Shown here in pieces: positions 29,834 to 36,226 of a stretch of DNA of 64,000 bases. The first letter of the stretch is position 1, and the number at the start of each line of letters is the position of its first letter. The position numbers and the translations under genes were made by a program. Location of the stretch: contig CAVZVS010000002.1 of assembly GCA_963778815.1 (NCBI GenBank), forward strand, positions 344,879 to 408,878. The letters run 5' to 3'. The notes beneath the pieces are model-generated. The model saw nothing but the letters and a program-made list of their open reading frames with translations. It was not told where the DNA came from and did no database searches. Source of the stretch: an uncultured Chloroflexia bacterium. GTDB lineage: Bacteria > Chloroflexota > Limnocylindria > Limnocylindrales > CSP1-4.

Positions 29834-30847
29834 TCAGAGTTCCTTGCGGTAGGCAGCGGCGCGCCTGGCCACCCGGAAGCCGAGACTCTCGTGCAGGCTC
29901 AGCGCGCCGGTCGGGCTGTCCGCATCCACCCCGAGCGAGACGCTGTCCATACCCCGTCGACGGAGCTCGCGGAGCGCGCCGGTCATCAAGGCGCTGGCGA
30001 TCCCCTGTCGCCGCCATAGCCGCCGCACGCTGGCCCGCTCCAGCCAACCGCGCCGGATGCCCTCGGCTGCGTTGTCCGCCGGGAAGATGATCGCCAGAAC
30101 GCAGCCAACGACCTCATCGCCGGCCCAGGCGGCCTGCCATAGCGAGAGGTCGTTGTCCGGGTCGCCCAACGTCCGCTGGATGTCCGCTTCGGTCGACTCC
30201 CGGGCTCCCCAGTGGTCTTGGAACGCCTCGGAGTCGGCAGCCAGGACTTGCCGGACGACGTCCTCGGTCACCGGCCGCATCCGCACGCCTTCGGGCAGTT
30301 CGCGCACGGGCAGGTCGTCGAGATCGGACCGGGTCATCTCGAAGTACCAGCGCACCGGCTCATAGCCTTCGTTCAGGAGCAAGGCCACGGCGCCGGTCGC
30401 GTCGTCCACGGTCCACGATCCGAGGCTGGCCGGCCGATCGTCACCGGCGGCGGTCTGGGCGGCGGCTCGTTCGCGCTGGCGAGCCTGGCCCCAGTGCAGG
30501 AGTGCCCGGCCGAGGCCGCGCCGGCGCTGGGTCGGGTGGACCCAGCCGTGGCTGTCGAAGATCCGAGTCCCGTCGCGGACCGAGTACTGGACGTAGCCGG
30601 CGGCCACCGTCCGCCCGTCGATCTGGGCCAGGAGCAGGTCGCGGGTCGGCTCGAACTGGTCGAGGTTGGTCAACCAATTCCGGGCGGCGTCGACCGAGTA
30701 GATCTCAAAGGTCTCGTCGGCGACCTCGGCCGCGTTCATCACCGCGATCAGCCCAGGCAGGTCACCTTCGCCGGCATACGGCCGAAAGGTCAGACCGTCG
30801 ATCGGTGGTGCGTCCGACAGTTGAAGCGTGCCGCGATCGCGGGTCAT
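29834..30847 (-). CDS. tandem-GNAT N-acetyltransferase (mycothiol synthase MshD-like), paralog 1
   Basis: It has two GNAT motif-A regions (RRRGLGRALL; RRQGIASALMTGAL...LGFRV). Its ATG at 30847 overlaps the rsgA stop (ATGA). Confidence 0.65.
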   Translation of the reverse strand: MTRDRGTLQLSDAPPIDGLTFRPYAGEGDLPGLIAVMNAAEVADETFEIYSVDAARNWLTNLDQFEPTRDLLLAQIDGRTVAAGYVQYSVRDGTRIFDSHGWVHPTQRRRGLGRALLHWGQARQRERAAAQTAAGDDRPASLGSWTVDDATGAVALLLNEGYEPVRWYFEMTRSDLDDLPVRELPEGVRMRPVTEDVVRQVLAADSEAFQDHWGARESTEADIQRTLGDPDNDLSLWQAAWAGDEVVGCVLAIIFPADNAAEGIRRGWLERASVRRLWRRQGIASALMTGALRELRRRGMDSVSLGVDADSPTGALSLHESLGFRVARRAAAYRKEL

Positions 30848-31947
30848 CGGCCATCGTCTCCGTACTTCATCTTCATGTGCCGGTTCACGGCCGTATTGAA
30901 CATCCGGAACTGACGCTTGCGCTCGGCTCGCTCCCGGGCGTTGCCCGGGCCTTCGCGCCGGGCCTGCTCACGCTCGAGCTTGTCGCGGTTGGCCAGTCGG
31001 GCTGGGTCGAGCGAGCCAGCCTCGATCGCAGCGCGCACAGCACAGCCCGGTTCGCGATCGTGCCGGCAATCGGCGAAGCGACAACCCGATCCGAGCTCAT
31101 CGATGTCGGCGAACGCCGCATCGAGGCCGCCGTCATCGTCGGCCAGGCTCAGCTCGCGCATCCCCGGGGTATCGAGGATGAGCCCGCGGCCAGGGACGCG
31201 CACCAGATGCCGTCGGGTGGTGGTATGTCGACCCTCGTCGTCGCCCTCGCGGATCGCGCCCGTGCCCTCGATCTCTTCGCCGGCGAGCGCGTTGAGCAGG
31301 GTCGACTTGCCGACGCCGGACGAGCCGATCAGGGCAGCCGTCCGCCCATCGCCGAAGAGCTCGGCCAATCCGGCCATCCCGATCCCGGTCGTCGCGCTGA
31401 CCGCGTGGACCGGCGCTCCGCTCGCGATCAGGGCGACCCTGGCGACCGCGCCGTCGACGTCAGCGGCCAGGTCGGCCTTGTTGAGGACCACGACCGGCTG
31501 GGCGCCGGAGCTCCAGGCCAGGGCAAGGTAGCGCTCCAGCCGGCGCAGGTTCAGGTCGGCATTGAGCGACGTCACGATCAGGAGCAGGTCGACGTTGGCG
31601 GCCAGGACCTGGTCGACCGAACTGCGGTCGACCGGAGCCCGTCGGATGACCGAGGTCCGCCGTGGGACGAGACCCTGGATCAGGCGGTGGCCGGGATCGC
31701 TGGTCGCCTGGAGCCGGACCCAGTCACCGACGACCGGGAAGCCGGCCTGACCCTCGAGCTCCGCATCGAACCTGAAGCGACCCGATACGGTGGCCCGGGC
31801 ATCGCCTGAACCCGTCGCGACAAGGTACGACCCCCGATCCTCGACCAAGATCCGGCCGGGCTCCTGTCCATCGTCGCCGACCGCCGCGAAGGCGCTCGCC
31901 TGGACGGCATCCCAGCCCCAGTCGATCAGACTGGCCGGTGCGCTCAT
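30844..31947 (-). CDS. rsgA: ribosome small-subunit-dependent GTPase A (RsgA/EngC)
   Basis: ATG at 31947 (MSAPASLIDWGWD). It has the circularly permuted GTPase motifs VVLNKADL, DTPG and LIGSSGVGKSTLLNAL, and the C-terminal Zn motif CRFADCRHDREPGC. The track ORF extends upstream to 32793 in the same frame, which I do not believe is real. Confidence 0.85.
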   Translation of the reverse strand: MSAPASLIDWGWDAVQASAFAAVGDDGQEPGRILVEDRGSYLVATGSGDARATVSGRFRFDAELEGQAGFPVVGDWVRLQATSDPGHRLIQGLVPRRTSVIRRAPVDRSSVDQVLAANVDLLLIVTSLNADLNLRRLERYLALAWSSGAQPVVVLNKADLAADVDGAVARVALIASGAPVHAVSATTGIGMAGLAELFGDGRTAALIGSSGVGKSTLLNALAGEEIEGTGAIREGDDEGRHTTTRRHLVRVPGRGLILDTPGMRELSLADDDGGLDAAFADIDELGSGCRFADCRHDREPGCAVRAAIEAGSLDPARLANRDKLEREQARREGPGNARERAERKRQFRMFNTAVNRHMKMKYGDDGR

Positions 31948-33008
31948 CGGCCGAGCTCCGAAGGGATGCCCAGGCCGTCCACCGGCCGCTGGTACTCGAA
32001 CGACTCGGACACGATCCGGAAGCCCAGGCTCTCGTACAGATCGAGCGCCCGGCGGACGTTGCCGGTGTCGACCCCCAGGGCCGCCCGGGTAGCGCCGGCG
32101 TCGCGGACCGTGCGTAAGCTCTCGGCGAGGAGTGCCCTGGCGAGGCCGCGGCGGCGGAACTCCGGTTGGACGGAGATCGACTCGGTCCAGCCGATGATCG
32201 TCCCGTCCTCGTGGGCCGGCTCGAGGAAGTTGAGGATCTGGCCGGCGATCCTGTCGTGATGGAAGGCCACCCGCCACAGGTCCGGTCGGAAGGTGGGCTC
32301 GCCGATGAACCCCTGGAAACTGTCCTCGGAGCCGTCGTTGGCACTGTCGCCCCAGTGATCGGCGAAGGCCACGATGGCGGCATCGAACACCCGTCGATGC
32401 ATCGCCCGATCGGTCGGGTCGATCGGCCGCAGGTCGAAGCCATCCGGTAGGGCCAGATCCGGGATGTCCTCGAAGTCGGGCCGCACCAGGGTCGCACCGC
32501 GTCGGACGTTGACGAACCCCGCGTTCTCGACGATCGCCCTGGCGGCGTGATCCTTGCCGTTGGCGTAGGCGGCCAGGAACGTCGGCTGATCGGGTCGGGC
32601 CGGCGGGTTCGCGGCGGCCATCTCGAGCAGGTGCTCGAGCTGCCAGCCGATGAGGGCGGCCTCCACCCCTCGTCCCGTCGCCGCCGGGTCGACGTGGATG
32701 ATCGCCTCGTAGGCGCGCTCGCCTGAGTTGCGGTCGGTCCACGTGGTTCGGCCATAGGCCACGCCCTCGCCATCGAGCTCGACCACCACGCAATCGCGCG
32801 GCAGGTCGCAGTTCTCCAGGTGGGCGTAGTCATTGTCCAGCTGGGCGGCGCTGATCTTCTCCGGGTTGCCATTGGCATTCCGGGCGGCGCTGCCGATCCG
32901 GGCCAGGATGGGATGGTCCTCGGGTCCCCGGTAGGGTCGGACCACCGGCCACGCGGATGTCCCGAGGCCGGGCGCTCCGGCCCGCGATCGATCGTTCATC
33001 GTGGTCAT
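31944..33008 (-). CDS. tandem-GNAT N-acetyltransferase (MshD-like), paralog 2
   Basis: ORF 31944..33008(-). Its second GNAT domain has FRRRGLARALL...LGFRIV. Its stop overlaps the rsgA start (ATGA). Confidence 0.65.
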   Translation of the reverse strand: MTTMNDRSRAGAPGLGTSAWPVVRPYRGPEDHPILARIGSAARNANGNPEKISAAQLDNDYAHLENCDLPRDCVVVELDGEGVAYGRTTWTDRNSGERAYEAIIHVDPAATGRGVEAALIGWQLEHLLEMAAANPPARPDQPTFLAAYANGKDHAARAIVENAGFVNVRRGATLVRPDFEDIPDLALPDGFDLRPIDPTDRAMHRRVFDAAIVAFADHWGDSANDGSEDSFQGFIGEPTFRPDLWRVAFHHDRIAGQILNFLEPAHEDGTIIGWTESISVQPEFRRRGLARALLAESLRTVRDAGATRAALGVDTGNVRRALDLYESLGFRIVSESFEYQRPVDGLGIPSELGR

Positions 33009-33012
33009 CGGA

Positions 33013-33816
33013 TCAACCTACCCGCTTCAGCTTGCCGGTCCGCTTGGCGTAGCGCTCGGCCCTGCCGAACGCCCAGATGCCGAGCGGGATGAACGTGACC
33101 GCCATGATGAGGAGTGGCCAGATATCGCTCCACAGCTCGGTCACCGGGACGCCTTCGATGAGGCCCTGGCGGACGCCGTCGAGGACGTACGTCGCGGGCG
33201 ACAGATGGGACAGTGCCTGCATCCACGGCGGCAGGATGTCGACCGAGTAATAGACCCCGCTGACCAGCAGCAGGCACGACTGCAGGACGAAGCACATCTG
33301 CGCCCCGCGCTCGACGTACAGCAGCGGCAGGATCGCGGCCATCATCCCGATCCCCACGAAGCTGAACGAGCCGAGGGCCATGAACGTGGCCGCCGTCCCC
33401 GGGTTGGCCTTGGACAGGTCGAGCTGGGGGAAGAACAGGACCAGCACGATCAAGATGGCCAGGGTATGGATCAGCCCGTAGACGATGGCATACGAGCACG
33501 ATCCGAGCAGCTGGGTCCAGCGCCGGACGGGCGCCATGAAGGTGTATTCGAGGGTGCCCTCCCAGCGCTCGACGGCGATCGTCTCGGCGATCCAGCTGAA
33601 GACCACCGATAGGTAGTTCCAGAAGATGGCCCCGATCATCAACGACAGGAGCAGGGTCGGGCTGCCCTGTTCGACCCCGATCAGCGAGATCGACAGGGCG
33701 CCGGCGACGGAGTACACGAGGAACGCCAGCTCCCAGCCCCAGTAGCGCCGGGTCAGGAAGAAGTTGCGCTCGACGAAGGCGTAACTCGCCTTCAGCTCGT
33801 GGGTCATGGTGGTCAA
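33013..33816 (-). CDS. ABC-2 type transporter permease
   Basis: ORF 33013..33816(-) has 6 predicted TM helices, with an ABC-2 family signature organisation. Confidence 0.8.
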   Translation of the reverse strand: MTTMTHELKASYAFVERNFFLTRRYWGWELAFLVYSVAGALSISLIGVEQGSPTLLLSLMIGAIFWNYLSVVFSWIAETIAVERWEGTLEYTFMAPVRRWTQLLGSCSYAIVYGLIHTLAILIVLVLFFPQLDLSKANPGTAATFMALGSFSFVGIGMMAAILPLLYVERGAQMCFVLQSCLLLVSGVYYSVDILPPWMQALSHLSPATYVLDGVRQGLIEGVPVTELWSDIWPLLIMAVTFIPLGIWAFGRAERYAKRTGKLKRVG

Positions 33817-33852: not shown

Positions 33853-34047
33853 CTAACTGGACCGGGCCGCGTCGAGGGGACGATCGGCCGCGAGCCGAGC
33901 GCCGATGCGGACCATCGAGCGCCCGACCGCCTGCCGGATGGCGCGACGTGGAGGCCGGTCGAGGAGCCGAGGGATCTCGGCTTCGGCGGCCCACCGCGCC
34001 GCTCGCTCCGCGTGGACCACGCGGGCGAGGGACGGATCTGGGTACAT
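33853..34047 (-). CDS. small hypothetical ORF in the 307-nt gap between ABC ATPase and permease
   Basis: It is the internal Met (MYPDPSLARVVHAERAARWAAE...) of track ORF 33853..34167. It is Arg-rich and may be non-coding. Confidence 0.15.
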   Translation of the reverse strand: MYPDPSLARVVHAERAARWAAEAEIPRLLDRPPRRAIRQAVGRSMVRIGARLAADRPLDAARSS

Positions 34048-34123
34048 CTGATTCCTTCCCTTCGAGGGTCGTCGGTATCGGTCGGAGTGGGGGAGGGGTC
34101 GCGAGACCCCGCTGGACTTGGTG

Positions 34124-35041
34124 TTAGCTCTCGTCATCGCTGTCCTCCTCTGCTTCAAGGTCGTCATCGAGTGAACGACCGGTCCAGGTCATGAAGGCCG
34201 CCTCGAGGGTGGCCGGTTGATCGTGTCGTTCGGCCACCAGGCGCTTGAGTCCGTCGGGTGTCGATGAGGCGACGATGCGCCCCTCGTTGAGGATCGAGAT
34301 CCGATCGCACAGTCGTTCGGCTTCGGCCAGGTCATGCGTGGTCAGGACGATCGTCGCGTCGTGGGTCGCCCGGAGCTCCTCGATGAAGCCCTGGACCTCC
34401 AGCTTCGAGCGCGGATCGAGCCCGGTCGTCGGCTCGTCCAGCAGGAGTAACGTCGGCGAGGTCAGCAGCGCTCGCGCGATGGCGACCTTCTGCTGCATGC
34501 CTCGGCTCATCTGCTCGATCGGTCGGCCGACCCGCTTCTCGCCGATCCCCAGCCGGGCCAGGATCGCCATCGCATCGCGTTTCGCCGTATGGGCATCGAG
34601 GCCGTACAGGCGGGCGGCGAAGCTGAGGTTCTCCAGCGGGCTGAGCTTCTTGAAGAAGGCCGCATCCACGCTGACCCGGTTGATCAGGCGTTTGACCGCC
34701 ATCTCATCGCGTTCGATGTCGAGGCCGAAGATCTCGACCCGACCCTCGTCCAGGGTCAGCAACCCACAGATGAGCCGGATCAAGGTCGACTTGCCCGAAC
34801 CGTTGGCGCCCAGGATCCCGTGGATCTCGCCCCGCTCGAGGCGGAGCGAGACGTCCTCGACCGCATCGACCGGCTGGCGCTTGCGACCCAGGCTGAAGCG
34901 CTTGGTCACGTGGTCTACGAGCAGGGCCGGGACGGCGGTCTGCGAAGCGTCGACAGACGACACTTGCTGGGGCACCGGTCGCACGGACGACACGCTCGCC
35001 GGTCGGCGACTATTCAGTTGTGGTGTCGTGCTGGTGGTCAC
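34124..35041 (-). CDS. ABC transporter ATP-binding protein (ABC-2 exporter family)
   Basis: It has Walker A GANGSGKST, Q-loop, signature MSRGMQQKV and Walker B LLLLDEP. The start is set at in-frame GTG 35041 (MTTSTTPQL...). The track start 35218 would add a low-complexity extension that crosses a terminator hairpin. Confidence 0.8.
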   Translation of the reverse strand: MTTSTTPQLNSRRPASVSSVRPVPQQVSSVDASQTAVPALLVDHVTKRFSLGRKRQPVDAVEDVSLRLERGEIHGILGANGSGKSTLIRLICGLLTLDEGRVEIFGLDIERDEMAVKRLINRVSVDAAFFKKLSPLENLSFAARLYGLDAHTAKRDAMAILARLGIGEKRVGRPIEQMSRGMQQKVAIARALLTSPTLLLLDEPTTGLDPRSKLEVQGFIEELRATHDATIVLTTHDLAEAERLCDRISILNEGRIVASSTPDGLKRLVAERHDQPATLEAAFMTWTGRSLDDDLEAEEDSDDES

Positions 35042-35188
35042 GGTCGGACTCCTGGTCGGATGTGCGTTGGGTGGCGGGAACGGGTGCTCTGTCGGTCGGG
35101 CCCGAGAATCGCGAAAGCCGCGGGTCCGCTGCGACGGTCTCGTCGCGGGGCCTCGCGGCTCACTTCTCCACGCCCAGGGACAGGCATG

Positions 35189-35222
35189 AAAAAAGCCGTG
35201 GGGCCCGATCCGGCCCACGGCT
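35189..35222 (-). terminator. intrinsic terminator (GC hairpin + U-tract) read on minus strand
   Basis: The minus strand reads gccgtgggccggatcgggccccacggc followed by TTTTTTC. T-tracts are rare in this 70% GC sequence. Confidence 0.55.
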
Positions 35223-35258
35223 CGTGGTTCCTGTCAGGGGCGGCTCAGCCGCCTCACG

Positions 35259-35342
35259 TCACCTCGAGATGGGCACGGATCTCCCGCGAACGCCAGCCCC
35301 GGTGGGCGGCGTGACGCGTCGGATGAAGAGGTCGTTCCACAT
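35259..35342 (-). CDS. 27-codon sORF with consensus SD, between promoter and terminator (leader peptide / small protein candidate)
   Basis: The minus strand reads ggAAGGAGtcgaactacATG TGG AAC GAC CTC TTC ATC CGA CGC GTC ACG ... TGA (MWNDLFIRRVTPPTGAGVRGRSVPISR). A secondary hairpin gaggcggctgagccgcc and the terminator follow. Confidence 0.3.
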   Translation of the reverse strand: MWNDLFIRRVTPPTGAGVRGRSVPISR

Positions 35343-35399
35343 GTAGTTCGACTCCTTCCCATCGATAGAGTGGCGGGGCGCTCGGCGAGCGCGGGTCGG

Positions 35400-35429
35400 A
35401 TGGTAAACCCGGGACTTTGCGGATGTCAA
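35400..35429 (-). promoter_or_regulatory. sigma-70-type promoter TTGACA-18-TACCAT on minus strand
   Basis: The minus strand reads gggTTGACAtccgcaaagtcccgggtTTACCATcc, placed 55-85 nt upstream of the sORF. Confidence 0.4.
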
Positions 35430-35510
35430 CCCTTGATACTCCCGGACGGGTGGAGACTTGCAGGCGGACGTGGCCGGGCCACGCCGCCGACCGACGGACT
35501 TGGCCAGCGA

Positions 35511-36083
35511 TCAGATGAGCTCCTTGCGGACGATCAGCCGGGGGCGTCCCCCGGCGGACGATGTGGTCGGCGCGACGACCTCGAAGCCGGCCGCCAGGAA
35601 GACCGGCAGCGTGCCGCTGTAGGCGTAGCGATCGGGCATCCGGGTGTCCCCGGGGTCGGCTGGGTAGGCCTCGACCGCCGGAGCTCCATGGGCTGCCGCC
35701 ATCTCGACCGCTCCTTCGAGCAGGCGGTGAGCGATCCCTCGCCCCCGCGACGCCTTGCCCACGACGAAGCAGACGATCGACCAGACTGGCCGGTCGTCGA
35801 CGGGCTTGATCGTGCGCGATCGCTGGAGCAGCTCGAAGTCGGTCCGCGGACCGACCGAACACCAACCGACGACGCGGCCATCCTCGAGCGCGATCACACC
35901 CGGCGGCAGCTCGCCGGCAGCGAGCGCTTCCAGCTCGGAGCGTCGCTCAGCCGTCGTCATCGTCGCGTTGACCGAGCTGCGGTGGCGCCAGAAGGTGCAC
36001 CAGCACCACTTCGGGTCGCCGCCTTCTTCGAAGAGGGCAGCCAGATCCGGGAGGCGCTTCGGTTCGAGCGGCAGGATCTCCAT
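35511..36083 (-). CDS. GNAT-family N-acetyltransferase
   Basis: ATG at 36083 (MEILPLEPKRLPDLAALF). It has the GNAT motif RGRGIAHRLLEGAVEMAA. It is a paralog of 57196..57807 (shared GDPKWCWC / ERGCWCQSW motif). Confidence 0.8.
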   Translation of the reverse strand: MEILPLEPKRLPDLAALFEEGGDPKWCWCTFWRHRSSVNATMTTAERRSELEALAAGELPPGVIALEDGRVVGWCSVGPRTDFELLQRSRTIKPVDDRPVWSIVCFVVGKASRGRGIAHRLLEGAVEMAAAHGAPAVEAYPADPGDTRMPDRYAYSGTLPVFLAAGFEVVAPTTSSAGGRPRLIVRKELI

Positions 36084-36226
36084 GCCCGCAGGGTACCGCG
36101 CTGCCATGGCAGGGGGTCGTCCCCCAGATCCCGCAAGACGGACACCGGAAGATCATCAACGCCCTTTGGCGCGACCTCAGCGGTGATCCGGGTCCGCGGG
36201 GCTTCTGCTTGGCCTACAGTCGGCGC

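Follow-up and report, generated by a model that had tools for sequence, protein, structure and literature searches.

In the classical attenuators of the trp, his and leu operons of Proteobacteria, the genes under control are biosynthetic, and the leader contains consecutive codons for the amino acid concerned. For the upstream open reading frame (uORF) of whiB7, it has been shown experimentally that efficient translation leads to a rho-independent terminator, while impaired translation leads to an antiterminator and to readthrough (PMC10274678). In Bacillus subtilis, the bmrB leader controls the multidrug ATP-binding cassette (ABC) exporter bmrCD through a translated ORF, alternative stem-loops and an intrinsic terminator (PMC4191407). 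Here, a leader of comparable architecture is described from the minus strand of a 64,000-nucleotide (nt) stretch of contig CAVZVS010000002.1 (hereafter, the window), which belongs to an uncultured bacterium of the Chloroflexota (Limnocylindria). The unit consists of a promoter, a small open reading frame (sORF) of 27 codons and an intrinsic terminator, and precedes genes for an ABC-2 ATPase, a small protein and a permease, for which it is probably a ribosome-mediated (leader-peptide) transcription attenuator. Its features, numbered by window position, are the following:

35424-35429, minus strand: -35 hexamer TTGACA (sequence reading and promoter scan).
35400-35405, minus strand: -10 hexamer TACCAT, separated by an 18-nt spacer from the -35 hexamer (promoter scan).
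35352-35359, minus strand: Shine-Dalgarno (SD) sequence GGAAGGAG of the sORF, 9 nt 5' of the ATG at 35342-35340 (sequence).
35259-35342, minus strand: leader sORF of 27 codons followed by TGA (35261-35259), with deduced peptide MWNDLFIRRVTPPTGAGVRGRSVPISR (sequence; frame kept in relatives).
35282-35323, minus strand: hairpin A, within the sORF, approximately codons 7-20 (minimum free energy [MFE] folding).
35281-35285, minus strand: GGGAG, directly 5' of the antiterminator 5' strand, invariant (conservation).
35261-35281, minus strand: predicted antiterminator 5' strand (the box), GAUCCGUGCCCAUCUCGAGGU, spanning codons 21-27 of the sORF plus the initial base of the stop (near-invariant nucleotides; MFE pairing).
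35239-35253, minus strand: hairpin B, GGCGGC-UGA-GCCGCC, just past the stop codon, inside the antiterminator helix (RNAalifold consensus).
35207-35228, minus strand: predicted antiterminator 3' strand, formed by the terminator 5' arm and loop (..CGAGCCGUGGGCCGGAUC) (folding and covariation).
35189-35222, minus strand: intrinsic terminator T1, with stem-loop AGCCGUGGGCC..GGGCCCCACGGCU at 35222-35194 and U6 at 35194-35189 (sequence; pairing conservation).
34124-35053, minus strand: ABC ATPase gene, GTG at 35041 to stop at 34124, with SD AGGAG at 35053-35049 (Pfam ABC_tran, 6.7e-33).

The arrangement agrees with that of described attenuators in that a short ORF with its own ribosome-binding site (RBS) lies between promoter and first structural gene, that an intrinsic terminator (T1) separates this ORF from the structural gene, and that the box would provide a terminator-excluding antiterminator with a strand that a ribosome could cover. 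With the trp/his/leu attenuators it has in common the SD and short ORF, the predicted masking of the antiterminator by a ribosome at the end of the ORF, the intrinsic terminator and a possible pause hairpin; it differs from them in the lack of a cognate codon run, in preceding ABC-2 exporter genes, in carrying the antiterminator 5' strand wholly within the last seven codons, and in that an equivalent of their 1:2 anti-antiterminator pairing is weakly indicated. The comparison with whiB7 was made by description, no sequence relationship being expected. Both have a short uORF behind a distal promoter, a peptide that varies between species and a high-GC genome, and whiB7 responds to translation stress, as we infer for the present leader. 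However, whiB7 encodes a transcription factor in actinobacteria instead of an ABC exporter in Chloroflexota, and its uORF is alanine-rich and of variable length (PMC10274678), whereas here the ORF has 27 ± 2 codons, with 1-4 Ala per 27 residues and a nucleotide-invariant 3' third. In bmrB, too, a translated leader and a terminator control an ABC exporter, the ribosome acting as sensor of protein-synthesis inhibitors, which is what is proposed here. Nevertheless, the bmrB ORF has 53 codons with the terminator inside the coding region (PMC4191407), in contrast to 27 codons and a terminator 36-39 nt past the stop; abolishing its translation lowered expression and abolished induction (PMC4191407), while the present model predicts more readthrough; and the BmrCD half-transporters are of a different ABC type from a separate ATPase and ABC-2 permease (DrrAB-like). 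Finally, Erm/cat translational attenuation sequesters the RBS of the resistance gene, whereas the ATPase SD lies here approximately 140 nt past T1 and pairs only locally.

No Rfam (Rfam 15) family was found at the gathering threshold in the window or in 10 related loci, and a permissive search of positions 34900-35600 returned only sub-threshold terminator look-alikes (e.g. Xoo2, 23.6 bits vs. a threshold of 45); the likeness to Rfam cis-regulatory leaders and riboswitches lies in the 5'-leader position and the alternative terminator/antiterminator. Three representative leader peptides had no match among NCBIfam hidden Markov models at E ≤ 10, and among the papers listed by a literature search on leaders, attenuators and uORFs in Limnocylindria, none named Limnocylindria. 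Since the sequence-level features of an attenuator are present while those of the amino-acid, bmrB, whiB7 and erm/cat subtypes are not, the leader is best regarded as a new family of a well-known kind; the mechanism itself would be unsurprising to a specialist, and the value of the case lies in the unusually clean comparative evidence, the host lineage and the implied wiring of an abundant soil exporter operon to translation stress.

Each element that the original prediction had read from the letters alone was recovered on the minus strand of the window: the promoter TTGACA-18-TACCAT, the SD 9 nt before an ATG with its 27-codon sORF, and a hairpin followed by a GC-stem and T6 terminator; all of them recur in related genomes at the same relative position, which is the decisive argument against chance. 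A scan of 10 kb on both strands gave no sigma-70-like match other than this promoter (10/12 matching positions; 0.4 in shuffles), and from its position the transcription start site (TSS) would lie at approximately 35393. T-tracts, noted as rare in this GC-rich DNA, were otherwise absent: apart from the T6 at 35189-35194 (read as A6 on the plus strand), the 64-kb window (GC 69.9%) contains no A or T run of at least 5. The ATPase, expected about 150 nt downstream, starts (GTG at 35041) 148 nt after the U-tract. Folding of the whole leader was more stable than that of 200 out of 200 shuffled sequences (z = -2.6).

The unit was conserved in about 184 related loci, all of which come from Limnocylindria-type Chloroflexota MAGs or from soil metagenomes. 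The permease shared 77-96% identity with 80 genome loci, nearly all of them from metagenome-assembled genomes (MAGs) labelled Chloroflexota, Chloroflexia, Limnocylindrales or Limnocylindria and few of them otherwise labelled, which places the window in this high-GC soil lineage; the permease protein search gave 7988 matches and, among the matches listed, nearly all were at least 81% identical, so that the outer limit of the family was not reached. Searched by blastn, 59 of the 80 genome loci had the 251-nt core in front of the orthologous ATPase, at the position seen in the window, and inspection of the remaining ones revealed mostly more divergent leader versions or contigs ending before the leader. 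A DNA pattern built on the conserved core matched once per locus in 68 of the 80 loci and retrieved at least 120 metagenome contigs. Conservation upstream of orthologous ABC-2 operons, the lack of which the original prediction had listed among the refuting observations, was borne out in the metagenomes, where the orthologous ATPase lay at most 500 nt downstream in 92 of the 97 contigs with more than 500 nt of downstream sequence; two chance matches inside genes were found among the pattern matches with little downstream sequence. In essentially all genome loci having upstream sequence the element was linked to the ABC-2 operon, and in two contigs (L176 and L184) the leader directly preceded the small conserved ORF. 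The promoter was retained in all 58 genome loci compared (58/58), with a -35 of TTGAC[A/G/T], a spacer of exactly 18 nt and a -10 of the form TAnnnT (mostly TAGACT) situated 164-179 nt before the terminator 5' arm. Three decayed leader copies (L135:40-111, L189:40-111 and L101:9217-9288) had a short N-terminus and had lost the stop at its usual site. In L135 and L189 the remnant adjoins a GTPase fragment resembling rsgA (GSSGVGKSTLLN), an arrangement that deletion of the exporter operon might have produced.

The sORF showed the signature of a translated frame with a variable peptide. The SD, the ATG and a frame of 24-30 codons (mostly 27) were kept in 70 of 72 genome loci, and the same frame with ATG was present in 164 of 169 elements when genomes and metagenomes were taken together, a further sequence class starting with GTG after GAGG. 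A GGAG, GAGG or AGGA core ended 4-18 nt before the start codon in nearly all members. Length differences amounted to whole codons, and the stop was fixed in position while varying in type (TAG 61, TGA 7 and TAA 1 among unique sequences). Frame, whole-codon indels and a fixed stop of changing type would be hard to explain unless the sORF is translated. Codons 2-11 varied at all three positions, and the N-terminal two thirds of the peptide were not conserved. The last eight codons, on the other hand, were fixed at the nucleotide level (GGG AGA UCU GUG CCC AUC UCG AGC), including codons that are non-preferred in a 70%-GC genome, and substitutions, e.g. of Phe for Ser (UUU for UCU), retained the base-pairing potential, a pattern suggesting that the 3' end of the sORF is constrained as RNA and not as peptide.

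The constraint coincides with a predicted pairing. The original prediction had proposed folding of alternative terminator and antiterminator structures, and such folding revealed a box (35281-35261) complementary to the T1 5' arm and loop (35228-35207), the resulting helix enclosing hairpin B, excluding T1 and being present in the MFE structure of the window leader. In transcripts folded only to the terminator loop, antiterminator pairing was recovered in 46-70 of 71 members, and in the alignment 93% of the cells were paired, vs. 31-42% when the partner was slid; one pair alternated between U:A, C:G and U:G. Moreover, the T1 apical loop covaried with sORF codons -7 to -5 in six complementary loop/box versions (GAUCUG/CAGAUC; GAUCCG/CGGAUC, found in the window; GGUG/CACC; CAGUG/CACUG; CGUG/CACG; and GUUCC/GGAAC), a complementarity that none of 200 partner permutations reached. 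The apical loop has no part in the terminator itself, and this covariation is the clearest evidence for the antiterminator. Hairpin B was paired in 94% of the cells, with compensatory changes in 3 of its 5 pairs. T1, which starts 36-39 nt past the sORF stop, was paired in 99% of the cells across 71 members, its hairpin having a mean energy of -22 kcal/mol and being followed by at least 6 U within 9 nt in 85 of 95 unique versions, from which a strong canonical terminator is predicted in about 90% of the members.

In order to relate these folds to translation, the ribosome was modelled as a 28-nt footprint placed codon by codon, and the ON and OFF states were read from models of nascent transcripts. 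When transcripts ended at the terminator loop and were free of ribosomes, the antiterminator core formed in 68% of 151 members; with a ribosome within the first ~17 codons it formed in 68-86%, and with a ribosome on the last seven codons in 0%. Placing the modelled P-site within the final 7-11 codons gave the antiterminator a probability of approximately 0 and the terminator one of 0.94, the antiterminator optimum lying at P-site positions -12/-13, just past A-P-x. In these models only a ribosome at the end of the sORF forces termination, so that prompt translation would correspond to OFF and a lagging, stalled or missing ribosome to ON.

The proposed mechanism would thus run as follows. Transcription would start from the conserved promoter, and a ribosome would load at the strong SD and translate the 27-codon sORF, whose last seven codons would constitute the antiterminator 5' strand, able to pair with the T1 5' arm and loop. 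A ribosome that has reached the end or stop of the sORF while the polymerase makes T1 would cover this strand, T1 would fold and transcription would end at the U-tract (OFF). If the ribosome is absent, or lags because of slow initiation or of stalling or slowing in the first ~16 codons, the box would stay free and would capture the T1 5' arm once it is made; T1 would then be blocked and the polymerase would enter the exporter genes (ON). The models point to this direction of regulation in vivo. Given that the sORF has no single-codon run and the N-terminal peptide is not conserved, the trigger is presumably general translation stress, e.g. ribosome-targeting antibiotics or a shortage of charged tRNA.

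Further features lie around this core and add to the list above:

35378-35392, minus strand: 5'-terminal stem-loop GCGCUC-GCC-GAGCGC, with a perfect 6-bp stem (full-leader MFE).
35116-35161, minus strand: second conserved stem-loop T2, GAGCCGCGAGGCC..GGACCCGCGGCU (family conservation).
33853-34167, minus strand: small conserved ORF, start codon uncertain, with C-terminal motif ..RRAIRQAVGRSMVRIGARLAAD.. (ORF scan and tblastn).
33013-33816, minus strand: ABC-2 permease gene (Pfam ABC2_membrane, 2.9e-17).

The antiterminator, the hairpin inside the sORF and the stem-loop between terminator and ATPase are elements beyond those of the original prediction. The base of hairpin A pairs UCC/CGCG with CGCG/GGA and includes the leading GGGA of the invariant GGGAG. 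Because register shifts between classes defeat RNAalifold on in-register 27-codon sORFs, this hairpin was judged by per-sequence folding and shuffles; it formed in almost all members (mean MFE -21.1 vs. -17.1 kcal/mol in shuffled sequences; z = -1.5; 166 unique members), with apical stems that differ by class and keep their complementarity (GCGCC/GGCGC, GCACC/GGUGC, CCGUUC/GAACGG and CCGCUC/GAGCGG). Our guess is that it might serve as a pause or synchronising hairpin. The GGGAG itself resembles an SD, and its three Gs can alternatively pair locally with the GCCC of the box. The 5'-terminal stem-loop coincides with the predicted TSS, and visual inspection of other members showed similar hairpins at the 5' end. 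T2 was present between the terminator and the ATPase start in 171 of 193 elements; its 5' arm (GAGCCGCGAGGCC) is near-identical to that of T1, its outer stem shows C:G to U:A changes, and its tail has no clean U-tract. It formed in 97% of models with T1 enforced and in 57% with the antiterminator enforced. In the full-leader MFE of the window the 3' arm of T1 forms a helix with the 5' arm of T2, yet such a T1-to-T2 relay was the best (MFE) fold in only 41% of members and a two-stage relay is consequently not claimed; T2 may act as a back-up terminator or as a relay.

Of the two options offered by the original prediction, an attenuation leader controlling the exporter and an independent small-protein or small RNA gene, the former was upheld by the linkage to the ABC-2 operon, by the covarying complementarity of box and terminator and by the fold switching with ribosome position in the models. 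The latter, in which a terminated transcript of ~200 nt and/or the 27-residue peptide would be the product instead of a regulator of the exporter, would fit the presence of an own promoter, SD and terminator, and there is a precedent in the attenuator-derived small RNA rnTrpL and leader peptide peTrpL, which reportedly have functions in trans. It is nonetheless very unlikely in view of the strict, orientation-specific association with the downstream ABC operon, the decay of the leader where the operon is lost (L135, L189 and L101), the lack of conservation in the N-terminal two thirds of the peptide and the coincidence of the conserved part with the antiterminator pairing; a secondary role in trans of the terminated leader RNA is possible. 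Slightly less probable still is a ligand- or protein-binding, riboswitch-like RNA with box, hairpin B and T1 as sensor and the sORF as a bystander. Such an RNA would account for the very high primary-sequence conservation over ~100 nt, loop and third-codon positions included, and for the invariant GGGAG, which has no explanation in the attenuator model; but an incidental ORF would not keep SD, start, whole-codon indels and a fixed, type-changing stop over ~180 copies of five sequence classes, no Rfam family matched, and the overlapping coding, antiterminator and terminator constraints already explain the conservation. Equally hard to favour as the independent gene is a translational or RNA-stability control, in which the alternative structures would determine whether ribosomes reach the ATPase RBS or how the leader is processed, with T1 serving mainly to close a separate short transcript: 148 nt with the conserved T2 do separate T1 from the ATPase start and some members are without a good U-tract, but the ATPase SD, ~140 nt from T1, pairs only locally in the full-leader MFE and T1 is canonical and strong in ~90% of members.

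Two further alternatives keep the attenuator and change what it senses. In one, the trigger would be specific, either a single amino acid (Arg at the R-R of codons 8-9; Pro or Ala at A-P/P-P) or a nascent-peptide motif sensing an antibiotic or the exporter substrate. No residues other than R-R/P at codons -20/-19 and A-P at -16/-15 (P-P in the clade of the window) are conserved where stalling would leave the antiterminator free to form, and these could mark a preferred stall site; the Pro at codon -15 is kept despite synonymous change (CCC 36, CCU 14 and CCG 7), the modelled antiterminator optimum lies just past A-P-x, and a di-prolyl mutation in the whiB7 uORF caused constitutive expression (PMC10274678). 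Nevertheless, there are only one or two such codons and no run, an exporter is not an amino-acid biosynthesis operon, and the same bases build the stem of hairpin A, so that conservation may be at the RNA level and the stall-site and RNA-structure readings of A-P are not separable; on balance a specific trigger seems unlikely, though it is the strongest of the alternatives. More doubtful is the idea that the invariant 3' third of the sORF is a programmed arrest or dwell module, a ligand-specific nascent-peptide sensor and part of a two-stage terminator cascade through a T1-T2 relay. There, the ribosome would be kept on the antiterminator strand by the GGGAG, the non-preferred codons AGA and UCU, the peptide G-R-S-V/A-P-I/T-S-S/R and a stop with C or G as the next base, a small molecule (the exporter substrate or an exit-tunnel antibiotic) would alter its dwell, and the freed T1 3' arm would capture the T2 5' arm, passing the decision to T2.

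Several observations weigh against the general-stress attenuator that we prefer. Its support is computational, and the organism is uncultured. Folding of full-length leaders at equilibrium was ambiguous: the terminator was favoured in most members regardless of the position of an upstream ribosome (mean probability 0.5-0.8), although in the window itself the antiterminator was favoured. As T1 is thermodynamically favoured at full length in most members, the ON state would depend on kinetics, the antiterminator having the advantage that synthesis of its 3' strand precedes that of the T1 3' arm. The U-tract is degraded in ~10% of members; in a minority (L073, L077, L078 and L080) it is lost after the T1 stem, ~50 nt past the T1 5' arm, with tails such as CAAGUGAUUC, while stem, loop and sORF are intact. 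The sORF does not repeat any one regulatory codon beyond R-R or P-P, no stall site was identified in it, and neither the conserved A-P (or P-P) at -16/-15, the invariant GGGAG nor T2 is accounted for by the model. Lastly, pairing of the 5' untranslated region with the box, which could act as an anti-antiterminator, was found in 70% of cases vs. 40% in shuffled sequences and 53% when partners were swapped between members, so this element is put forward as a weak hypothesis.

Regarding the operon itself, the best NCBIfam match of the ATPase was the DrrA subfamily, below its cut-off. The start region of the ATPase gene was conserved in relatives, and an N-terminal extension of ~40 residues before the ABC domain (34920-35041) has a conserved start of the form MTTT/MTAT..L.P..K across them. 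The ~300-nt gap between ATPase and permease is filled by the small ORF, without a match in Pfam or NCBIfam: an ORF of at least 50 amino acids ending just before the permease was present in 59 of 61 loci, with a shared motif like SIRRAIGRRIIxIGxRLAAEPSLELARSR, and tblastn matches to the small ORF were obtained in 24 loci. GNAT acetyltransferase genes lie on both sides of the operon on the minus strand (30844-33008 and 35511-36107). The upstream one encodes 198 amino acids; a two-domain MshD-like GNAT of 354 amino acids follows directly after the permease, and then an RsgA-like ribosome-biogenesis GTPase. Direct GNAT linkage was confined to the closest relatives. The possibility that the terminator is the 3' end of the upstream GNAT gene was rejected, since the conserved promoter intervenes and the upstream gene varies.

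With this leader, soil Chloroflexota of the Limnocylindria type, a class both abundant and uncultured, would obtain a first regulatory element concrete enough to be tested. Neither the 27-codon sORF, which is shorter than gene callers usually accept, nor the RNA, for which Rfam has no model, appears in present MAG annotation; ~180 sequences are available for adding the leader as a family. The compact promoter-leader-terminator unit of ~240 nt could also serve as a building block of reporters that signal translation stress in hosts of high GC content. For the biology of these bacteria, the analysis suggests a widespread ABC-2 exporter operon that is switched on by impaired translation, the pattern expected of antibiotic- or stress-responsive efflux.

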